DNA of 64,000 bases from Oligoflexia bacterium (GCA_963758495.1 CAVWVI010000004.1:32001-96000); one strand, 5' to 3'. Counted from the stretch's first letter, positions 9,195-10,958 are shown. Made by a program: numbers and translations. Notes: generated from the letters alone by a model not told the origin.

Positions 9195-10958
9195 TCACCG
9201 CGCACACACGACGTAGTAGTAGAAGAGGGCGTAGCTGCGGTAGTAGTAGCCGACATTGCCATTGGTGCCATTGAAGAGGAAGGCGAGGCTGGCACTATTA
9301 GGAAGCACCGACGACGACCAAAACCCCCCAAAACCCGCCATACCAGGAAGTGGGGTATATCCCCCAGGAGTACCCCTTCCCCGTGCTCTCGCCAATGCTT
9401 CAAACTGTTCCCGTGTCGGGGCGTTCCCACCGTTTTGTTCACAAAAGCCTGGATGATATTCTGTCCGACGATTCCAGGGCATCCCTACTCTTTCATAGCA
9501 TCCAGCTGCAGCTCTTTGGTTCATTGTGTTTGGTCCGGGAGAACTGAGCGTAAAAGGAGGAACTAATCCTATGGCATCAGTAATTCGATATTGCGGGCCT
9601 AATGCTGCAAACTCAGCGACATAACCTGGATCGTTCGGCCCTAACAGGACAGAATATGCATTACCTGCAACTTGAGGAACTTGGACTACAGCTTGGCCTG
9701 GAGGTGTGACTTGGGCGGATGATGATGAACTGCTAGAGCTTTGAGAGTCATTACCGGAAGTGAGCCCGGAATTTAGTTTGATACGATTATTCCAATCGAA
9801 TTTTGTACCACATCCATTGCTTCTGTTCAGCATGCCTAGGTTTTTAAACTGAATTTGATTCTTGTCTGCTGCATTTTGGCCGCATGTCATTGAAGAGCAT
9901 CCATCTCTCTTTTCAATGAGAATTTTACAGTTAGGACAAAGGCCATATTGGTCTCCCTTGCCTTGTTGTAAGACATCACGAATGAATGCCTTTTGTACTC
10001 CTTCATCCGTAGCCAGTTCCTTACACGAAATATCATGATGAGGTGGCCTTCCACAAGAAAAGCAAAGATCCTTGTGACAATTGGAGCAGTTGTAAGCAAA
10101 ATTCAGGAGGCCATTGAAACGAGCAATCCCTTCTCCACAACTAGGGCAAAACTTTAGGCAATCGACAGATCGCACGAGCATCCTCTGAACTGCCAAGGCC
10201 TGACCAGAATCTTTCACAATGGACGCAAGCTGAGTTGGGGAAATCTGAGAGTGACAAGTAGGATCAGGACAAGTAATCAGGTCTTTAGGTTTTTCCTTCT
10301 TTAAATTGAATTGCAAAGTCTCTTGGAGGCAAACGCGGTGAAAGGAATGACCACACTCTAAGAGCACAGAATCCTCTAGATCTGGATTCACTTCATCCCT
10401 ACAAATTTTACAAATCTTCTCTTGGTTCTCTTCCATTTGTTTCTCTTCAGAGAAACTAGCGTGAACCGAAGAAGCCTCTTTGTTAAGTTGGGTGGATATT
10501 AGGCGACGGGAAAATTCTCTGAGATAGAGAGCAGTCTTGACCAAATCAGAAGTATTGTCCTGCTGGCAAAATCCCAACAGGGCTTTAGGGATGCGGGAGA
10601 GCGTTCCATATTTAGCAAGTTCAGCAGCTTGTTTTTCTATGGCGATTCTTCGCTTTTCTAACAGGTCTTGACGATTCTGAAGATTTGAATCTAACTCCTC
10701 TAAACTACTGCTTTCAAAAGCATCTACTTCATCTGTGCTTGAGAATACTTGTTGTACTGATCCAACGGGCACATTCTCTATTCTACCGTCTTTAAACTGA
10801 ACAACAAGTCTCTCTTTAAGAGAGGCATCTAAAACGACCCCAAAAAGAGGTCCTGTTGAACTTTCAACGGTGACTGCATCTCCCGCTTTAAGTCCGGCCT
10901 GAGAATAAGAAGTAAGTCCAAAGGCCATTAAAATAGAGAATAATACAACTTTTTTCAT
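9195..10958 (-). CDS. Secreted RBR-type (RING1-IBR-RING2) E3 ubiquitin ligase-like protein with C-terminal CLec/DUF1566-like domain
   Basis: Signal peptide MKKVVLFSILMAFGLTSYSQA; RING1 CKIC..CGHSFHRVC..CPDPTC; IBR CPSC..CSNC..CFSC..HHDISC; RING2 CPNC.ILIEKRDGCSSMTC..CGTKFDW; tail PTREQF..FWSSS..VVCAR. Confidence 0.85.
   Translation of the reverse strand: MKKVVLFSILMAFGLTSYSQAGLKAGDAVTVESSTGPLFGVVLDASLKERLVVQFKDGRIENVPVGSVQQVFSSTDEVDAFESSSLEELDSNLQNRQDLLEKRRIAIEKQAAELAKYGTLSRIPKALLGFCQQDNTSDLVKTALYLREFSRRLISTQLNKEASSVHASFSEEKQMEENQEKICKICRDEVNPDLEDSVLLECGHSFHRVCLQETLQFNLKKEKPKDLITCPDPTCHSQISPTQLASIVKDSGQALAVQRMLVRSVDCLKFCPSCGEGIARFNGLLNFAYNCSNCHKDLCFSCGRPPHHDISCKELATDEGVQKAFIRDVLQQGKGDQYGLCPNCKILIEKRDGCSSMTCGQNAADKNQIQFKNLGMLNRSNGCGTKFDWNNRIKLNSGLTSGNDSQSSSSSSSSAQVTPPGQAVVQVPQVAGNAYSVLLGPNDPGYVAEFAALGPQYRITDAIGLVPPFTLSSPGPNTMNQRAAAGCYERVGMPWNRRTEYHPGFCEQNGGNAPTREQFEALARARGRGTPGGYTPLPGMAGFGGFWSSSVLPNSASLAFLFNGTNGNVGYYYRSYALFYYYVVCAR
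9198..9325 (-). other. Putative DGR variable region
   Basis: 32 consecutive NNY codons (25 NNC) at 9210-9305 between FWSSSV and VCAR*; TGTCATTT twice after the stop. Confidence 0.7.

Follow-up and report, generated by a model that had tools for sequence, protein, structure and literature searches.

Published accounts treat RBR ligases as eukaryotic enzymes. A RING1-IBR-RING2 module in a bacterial gene product with a predicted leader peptide therefore raises the question of whether the module is a genuine RBR and where such a protein would act. The gene lies in a window of 64,000 nucleotides (the whole stretch of DNA that was analysed) from an Oligoflexia bacterium, in which an earlier note had described a complete eukaryote-like RBR module in a secreted protein and had suggested horizontal gain from, and activity inside, a eukaryote such as a protist. 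The product, P0001, is best explained as an exported RBR-type E3 that uses the E1, E2 and ubiquitin of a host inside a protist, with a probability of roughly 0.7. The features of the gene are listed below.

9195..10958, minus strand: whole gene (ORF call), product P0001 of 587 aa from the MKKVV start
10896..10958, minus strand: predicted Sec signal peptide, aa 1-21, with basic N-region, hydrophobic core and S-Q-A cleavage site (by eye and hydropathy)
10743..10889, minus strand: tentative small SH3/Tudor-like domain, aa ~24-72 (sub-threshold Pfam and alignment)
10449..10706, minus strand: conserved segment preceding RING1, aa ~85-170 (invariant residues in 7 homologues)
10254..10412, minus strand: RING1, aa 183-235, with C183, C186, C202, H204, H207, C210, C230 and C235 (sequence, Pfam, alignment)
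10023..10172, minus strand: IBR, aa 263-312, with C271, C274, C291, C294, C299, C302, H307 and C312 (Pfam PF01485)
9792..9938, minus strand: RING2/Rcat, aa 341-389, with one zinc site (C341, C344, C359, C383) and a ~20-aa insertion
9897..9899, minus strand: codon of the putative catalytic Cys354 (aligned with the ARIH1 active-site Cys); Cys+2 is Ser356, not His
9687..9776, minus strand: Ser-rich linker, aa ~395-424 (sequence; variable in the alignment)
9198..9686, minus strand: C-type-lectin-fold domain (Lcl_C/InvE_AD-like), aa ~425-587, with invariant C506 and C585
9198..9320, minus strand: DGR variable-repeat-like stretch, aa 547-587 (codon bias; homology to VR/TR pairs of relatives)
9185..9197, minus strand: stop codon and short G-rich motif GC..GTGGG, a candidate IMH

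RING1, IBR and RING2/Rcat were present in P0001 in RBR order. The IBR (E 2.8e-8) and zf-RING_UBOX (E 5.8e-7) models of Pfam both matched above cut-off, and the best PDB match by sequence was human ARIH1 (E 7e-10), spanning aa 178-361. An AlphaFold2 model of the module was built on 38 sequences (pLDDT 87.5). The Foldseek matches of this model were led by ARIH1 and ARIH2 (E 2e-9), followed by RNF216, HOIL-1, HOIP and Parkin, and all top matches were RBRs. The earlier note had staked its reading on an HMM scan and structure prediction, and Pfam, the ARIH1 alignment and AlphaFold2/Foldseek all bore out the RBR assignment. Moreover, 20/20 zinc ligands and Cys354 were invariant in 7/7 close homologues (37-78% identity), including 8/8 ligands of RING1, the predicted E2-binding domain, and those of the IBR. 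P0001 has in common with ARIH1/HHARI and ARIH2 the RING1-IBR-Rcat order, the active-site Cys and the zinc ligands of RING1, of the IBR and of the first site in Rcat. Unlike them, P0001 has neither the autoinhibitory domain nor the catalytic His nor a second zinc site in Rcat, and it carries a signal peptide, an Rcat insertion, a lectin-fold C-terminus and, as the fifth ligand of RING1, a His. An Ariadne domain was not assigned, as the ARIH1 match stopped at aa 361, the C-terminus was a CLec fold and no such Pfam match was obtained.

Alternative upstream starts of the gene occur at 10973 and 10997, and a scan for a promoter or terminator of the gene gave chance-level results. In the alignment of the 7 close homologues, the SH3/Tudor-like domain was confined to P0001 and its closest orthologue P0003, with weak sub-threshold Pfam matches (Tudor_3, E 0.075; ProQ_C, E 0.0013 in P0003). 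An ORF at 56056-56787 of the window had no similarity to this N-terminal domain. The segment of aa ~85-170 is probably helical, judging from its residue pattern.

Export and proposed action

For P0001, export is suggested by a leader recognised by eye and hydropathy only and by a T2SS in the genome. A comparable leader was found at the N-terminus of 7/7 aligned close homologues. The T2SS cluster contained GspD, GspE and GspG above the NCBIfam cut-offs, and the secretins of type IV and Tad pili were also encoded. Neither an injectisome (the sole FHIPEP gene was the flagellar FlhA) nor sheath/VipB genes were found in the genome, and a TrbI/TraG locus looks conjugative. Ubiquitin, E2 and ATP/ADP translocase were not found in the 92%-complete assembly, negative results that weigh little because the same searches rang in 0/14 control genomes. 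The simplest use of P0001 is inside a eukaryote, since no E1, E2 or ubiquitin partner was found at home and the protein bears a leader peptide; P0001 probably works only inside a eukaryotic cell.

According to this explanation, P0001 would be exported by Sec and then probably by type II secretion, and would be released into the phagosome, the host cytosol or the surroundings. As the fold and conserved residues suggest, RING1 would bind host E2~ubiquitin, Cys354 would take over the ubiquitin as a thioester, and a substrate would finally receive it. The same order, from E2~Ub on RING1 to the Rcat Cys and the substrate, is given as the general RBR scheme in the available text of PMC9834252 and PMC7458406. 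The Rcat domain would operate without the catalytic His and on a single zinc site, and the host would most likely be a protist engulfing or harbouring the bacterium. A precedent for effectors with Sec leaders is the protist parasite Chromulinavorax, 44% of whose CDS carry signal peptides (PMC6561590, in part). With its 3.66 Mb and its genes for flagella and for type IV and Tad pili, the source genome does not resemble that of a reduced endosymbiont. A route across the host membrane was not evident from the genome, and a zinc/thiol enzyme would have to survive the oxidising periplasm, which counts against this explanation.

Most characterised bacterial E3 effectors reach the host by type III or type IV injection. 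Like P0001, the known groups (RING/U-box proteins such as Simkania SneRING, and the HECT-like, NEL, SidC, SidE and PUL-1 types) are bacterial and use the host ubiquitin system, whereas P0001 bears a Sec-type leader. At least seven bacterial E3 families, only one of them similar to eukaryotic RING ligases, are described in the available text of PMC13728172, which names no RBR-type bacterial ligase.

The C-terminal lectin-fold domain and its tail

The AlphaFold2 model of the C-terminal domain was mediocre (pLDDT 65.5) and gave no Foldseek match at E <= 0.001, and the fold call rests on VIA-align and Atlas. VIA-align listed almost only C-type-lectin folds, led by intimin (Z 9.2, rmsd 2.4, 87 aligned), InvE (Z 8.8), Bd2740 (Z 8.0) and Legionella Lcl (Z 7.5), and Atlas gave the InvE_AD and Lcl_C clusters at 0.96. 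P0001 itself had no match to Lcl_C (PF07603) and its homologues matched at E 2e-4 to 1e-7, below the 34.9-bit cut-off; the domain is Lcl_C-like only. A profile of aa ~425-587 matched 20 ORFs in the genome and was found in 24/40 same-family genomes. The cargo joined to it was an RBR, RING, ankyrin-RING, metallophosphoesterase, Sel1 or large unknown domain, or nearly nothing.

The lectin-fold domain would serve as a binding module, with a ligand-facing tip varied by a DGR now missing from the assembly, and would either pick the substrate or dock the protein on the host surface. An even chance is given to the reading in which it is a generic delivery or docking tag for glycans or proteins of the host surface or phagosome, not a substrate receptor; this is compatible with P0001 as an exported E3. 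Docking is favoured because the domain is fused to unrelated cargo in the 20 ORFs and because a disulfide is likely. The latter is suggested by the invariance of C506 and C585 and would suit an oxidising compartment. Furthermore, the closest folds are the tips of extracellular adhesins, and in other members of the P0001 clade described below this place is taken by pentapeptide repeats or an FGE-type domain, or is empty. The domain is not required for export, however, because four ankyrin-RBR paralogues and many RING proteins keep their leaders without it. Its absence from the ankyrin-RBRs favours substrate binding, since the ankyrins hold the expected substrate-binding role in those paralogues and the lectin domain could fill the same one. 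A further step, a naturally evolved retargetable degrader in which the lectin tip is the substrate receptor of the RBR and was diversified by a DGR, so that the set of tagged host proteins is reshuffled in a Bdellovibrionota lineage that has turned to eukaryotes, is considered doubtful. If true, it would link hypermutation to host-protein ubiquitination.

The tail of the domain carried a codon signature. In the last 41 codons, 25/40 degenerate codons were C-ending as against 17/96 elsewhere in the domain (P 6e-7). By this bias the tail ranked second among 1957 ORFs, the first being a simple repeat, and 5/1957 ORFs were also without K, E, Q, M and W in their last 40 residues. The bias was synonymous and began at the VR boundary (20/27 C-ending in the last 27 codons, 6/35 in the preceding block). 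It was seen at P < 0.05 in 11/18 parsable paralogous tails (2 of 20 skipped). The orthologue P0003 differed at 12/38 tail positions, compared with 32/216 in the RBR and 19/107 in the rest of the domain. These 12 differences were all among S/Y/L/H/A/D/N, and 11/12 fitted an AAY-type template on the P0001 codons. Moreover, the tail was homologous to the VR/TR pairs of relatives. In two of these (G029, G001), target, Avd, template and RT occurred together and 17/20 and 16/18 mismatches fell at template adenines; the lectin domain is hence a DGR target in relatives. Three more VR/TR pairs in relatives behaved likewise, and a DGR-type RT was found in 7/74 family genomes. Compared with five foreign templates, the P0001 tail differed mostly on adenines (P 6e-5, 0.005, 0.015, 0.057 and 0.10). 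The motif GC..GTGGG was also located at several paralogous tails and at the ends of DGR VRs in relatives, and its homing-initiation (IMH) role is presumed.

A DGR origin of the tail is thus quite probable from its codon pattern and homology. The VR-like tail inside a C-terminal CLec fold is shared with the DGR targets Mtd (Bordetella phage), TvpA (Treponema), LdtA (Legionella) and the conflict-system targets in the available text of PMC10907252. P0001 differs from them in having a eukaryote-type ubiquitin ligase as cargo and no cognate template, RT or Avd in its 92%-complete assembly. The best non-self match to the tail in that assembly had 14 non-A mismatches in 75 nt and no AAC-rich copy was found; the five RTs were all group II intron-like. 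A template-like pattern retrieved VR-like tails only over 75 genomes.

These absences speak for a second account, less probable but still substantial, in which the C-biased tail did not arise by mutagenic homing on the P0001 gene and was recombined from a former DGR target or shaped by selection on a Tyr/Ser-rich surface. In two relatives with a DGR (G078, G079), 12 of 16 dispersed lectin-domain loci had a parsable tail, and none of these 12 fitted the resident template, with at least 17 non-A mismatches. Likewise, no E3 ligase was seen as adjacent DGR target in the relatives. Against this account stand the synonymous nature of the bias and its start at the VR boundary, the concentration of P0003 differences in the tail and their fit to an AAY-type template, and the prevalence of template adenines among the differences from foreign templates. 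The DGR mark on P0001 is probably historical because the assembly contains neither a template nor a DGR reverse transcriptase, and present DGR activity on the tail is improbable. Among sequencing runs, three small-share DNA runs and no RNA run were listed, and the contigs of distant strains were short and did not resolve the tail. Remote and orphaned DGR targets exist (PMC10907252, in part).

Several further loci were observed. Cassettes of target, Avd, template and convergent RT were located at G029:C14 (L078), G001:C26/C36 (L079, L103), G078:C418 (L097) and G079:C26 (L099). Most of the targets in relatives begin with a leader, and those of G078 and G079 are cut by contig or locus ends. In the source genome (G000), an orphan lectin domain at C1:352101-352699 (L014), closest to that of the window gene (55-69% identity) and broken across two frames, shared the motif after the stop codon and was strongly biased towards C-ending codons. 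Another five paralogues, 770-890 aa long (C3:235986, C3:239514, C5:2496, C4:7848, C1:184844) combine a leader, a large N-terminal region without Pfam match (one tested) and the same lectin-fold tail, and two of them are in tandem beside a stand-alone tail fragment. Leader proteins at C2:113049-114668 (L009) and C5:156533-159189 (L004) end in another CLec-type domain (FGE-sulfatase-like), and one of this pair also has ankyrin and RING domains.

The variant Rcat domain

The earlier description of the module as complete holds for the three units and their order, but not for RING2, which has just four zinc ligands (C341, C344, C359, C383). The second zinc site of canonical RBRs (FCWxC..H..C) was replaced by FDW, and P0001 had no further ligands. 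The canonical two-zinc Rcat with a Cys-His-Glu/Gln triad is therefore not present, in that a second zinc motif is missing and Ser occupies Cys+2. The other details reported for RING2 were accurate. The catalytic Cys (Cys354) is encoded exactly at 9897-9899 and aligns with the active-site Cys of ARIH1; Ser stands at Cys+2, and the GCG..FDW motif is preceded by an insertion.

P0001 is classed as a variant, not a canonical, RBR, because two human RBRs, HOIL-1 and RNF216, likewise deviate from the canonical form. Both lack the canonical Cys+2 His, have a variable C-terminal half of RING2 and are active (PMC9834252, PMC7458406, in part). RNF216 is active without the His (PMC7458406, in part), and in HOIL-1 Trp occupies the His position and the C-terminal half of RING2 is non-canonical (PMC9834252, in part). 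More generally, according to the available text of both papers, RBRs cannot do without the Rcat Cys, whereas not all of them have the His. The two enzymes add zinc-binding elements to RING2, whereas the P0001 clade loses the second site. No tested RBR was found in which the second zinc site is missing together with the His. The conserved Rcat insertion (N362, K366) might stand in for the missing parts, although this is speculative.

The missing parts admit another reading, in which P0001 is a weak or dead RBR, a decoy whose RING1 binds host E2~ubiquitin and discharges or sequesters it. Among the tree rows drawn from the matches listed, the short Rcat clade had the Cys+2 His in 0/29 and the second zinc motif in 0/29, compared with 73/99 and 84/99 for the other RBRs of the same tree, and the H887A mutant of HOIP still forms the thioester but not chains (PMC7458406, in part). 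In contrast, the catalytic Cys, the Gly before it and the four first-site ligands were at least 90% conserved across the 38 sequences, and RNF216 and HOIL-1 work without the canonical His. The decoy is hence judged unlikely. Bacterial RBRs of this kind are short, have no recognisable autoinhibitory domain and by nature do without the catalytic His and a second zinc site in Rcat; they would thus offer a direct test of what the RBR mechanism cannot spare.

Relatives and genomic setting

Among 1.84 billion representatives searched, 1084 matched at E <= 0.001, of which the best 150 were taken, and a tree was calculated from the 144 of 168 collected sequences with a parsable Rcat (SH-aLRT only, many long branches, midpoint root). 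In this quick tree of the matches listed, P0001 was placed in a 29-row clade (support 97). Two further 8-row groups were also without the second Rcat zinc site. One consisted of ankyrin- or other-domain RBRs of the bacterial family of P0001, and the other, of leaderless proteins, gave a giant-virus-like impression. Organism names were obtained for 4/24 looked-up proteins, from Bdellovibrionia, Oligoflexales (two) and Zetaproteobacteria MAGs, and all four named members of the 29-row clade were bacterial. A separate 13-row clade (support 98) comprised canonical RBRs, many with leaders, and three of its proteins came from two bacterial MAG contigs, which look Babeliae-like though the records are titled otherwise. 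Together with an ankyrin-RBR in a Myxococcota MAG (L018), these assignments show that several lineages of bacteria have RBRs. The structurally variant RBR family in bacteria is real. Leader-bearing canonical RBR genes were noted in other bacterial MAGs (L017, L019), and in L017 two such genes are in tandem, adjoining an ATP synthase operon.

In the same family, IBR genes were detected in 8/74 genomes, compared with 0/41 other genomes of the order, both being samples of incomplete genomes; a first search of relatives had given one weak, stop-containing RBR match among 60 other genomes. Two same-family genomes (G061, G089) contained orthologues with the architecture of P0001, and the homologue P0006 ('Bdellovibrionia bacterium') is encoded in the former. 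Of 84 pattern matches in GTDB genomes (single RBR query) and 374 in JGI metagenomes (close alignment as query), 0 were confirmed. Phage records gave no RBR match, viral contigs gave 3 distant RBR loci of 31 candidates, and searches for longer fused forms added nothing beyond the paralogue in the genome itself. No description of bacterial RBR ligases or a DGR-marked E3 was found in the open full-text literature, where supplementary domain tables may list IBR. RBRs are mentioned as host enzymes only in the available text of PMC12591485 and PMC8567218, and one homologue is labelled 'IBR domain-containing protein' at NCBI. The 'RBR' in the available text of bioRxiv 10.64898/2026.04.11.717937 is rubrerythrin, not a ubiquitin ligase.

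The interpretation in the earlier note was upheld in part. Action in a eukaryote remains the best explanation, but a direct eukaryotic donor was not supported, as the P0001 clade comprises bacterial and unassigned proteins and no named eukaryote appeared as its sister in the tree of 144 rows and the look-ups of 24 proteins. The first reading had also overlooked that Rcat is truncated, that the genome has six intact RBR genes, that several bacterial lineages have RBRs and that the C-terminal domain is DGR-like. Its bacterial assignment was sound. The source genome belongs to a Bdellovibrionia family (3.66 Mb in 5 contigs, 92% complete), and the gene, surrounded by bacterial genes on a contig of 1.1 Mb, has a typical GC3 (0.38; genome mean 0.37 +/- 0.05) and is solitary between a 3'-5' exonuclease and toxin-antitoxin/IS genes. 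Contamination of the bin by eukaryotic or viral DNA, or a ubiquitin-like pathway of the bacterium's own that operates within its cell, is very improbable: the nearest Atlas clusters of the module are eukaryotic, with one giant-virus cluster, and the gene sits among mobile-element and toxin-antitoxin genes, but it is intron-free, with a bacterial-type leader and C-terminal domain, its contig is 1.1 Mb long and its GC3 typical of the genome, paralogues lie on all five contigs, the two orthologues largely refute contamination, and no E2 or ubiquitin was found in the 92%-complete assembly.

The genome survey that the earlier note had recommended for secretion systems and eukaryote-like effectors was productive. 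Besides the T2SS cluster, six intact RBR ORFs and one split copy were found, and the Rcat motif occurred in 7 ORFs as against 0 in reversed controls. Apart from P0001, these were a 41%-identical paralogue with the same architecture, four ankyrin-RBRs and the split copy. Many leader-bearing RING proteins were also found. A RING regex matched 19 of 2753 ORFs, an approximate count because 9 reversed ORFs also matched; a hydrophobic N-terminus was present in 19/19 of these, compared with 927/1957 background ORFs. RING, ankyrin-RING and WWE-RING-Deltex-PARP proteins were confirmed by Pfam. Bdellovibrionota are known for predation on bacteria, and this arsenal of leader-bearing RBR, RING and Deltex-PARP proteins is unreported in a family of that phylum. 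It implies that some Bdellovibrionota interact with eukaryotes and suggests that part of a Bdellovibrio-related lineage attacks or inhabits protists.

Some minor observations concern the same genome. Around the RBR gene, positions 400-18000 of the window hold a dense toxin-antitoxin/mobile cluster (AbiEi/AbiEii, Xre-Fic, nucleotidyltransferase, ISL3, rve/Mu transposase). The 864-aa chain at G000:C1:146139-148730 (L010:540-3131, minus strand) has a hydrophobic leader, WWE, RING, a Deltex C-terminal domain, ARTD15_N and PARP, which places a Deltex E3 and a PARP in a single bacterial protein. At G000:C3:187825-189318 (L008) and C2:116889-118407 (L009), a leader and RING are followed by a single IBR/Rcat-like unit with a GC motif, a helical region and a lectin domain. 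Each is possibly a two-unit RBR without one domain; the C2 copy is split into two frames, and similar proteins occur in G064, G078, G079 and G020. Long perfect hexanucleotide repeat tracts, of up to at least 20 units, were present at G000:C3:655000-668000 and C4:99571-101079.
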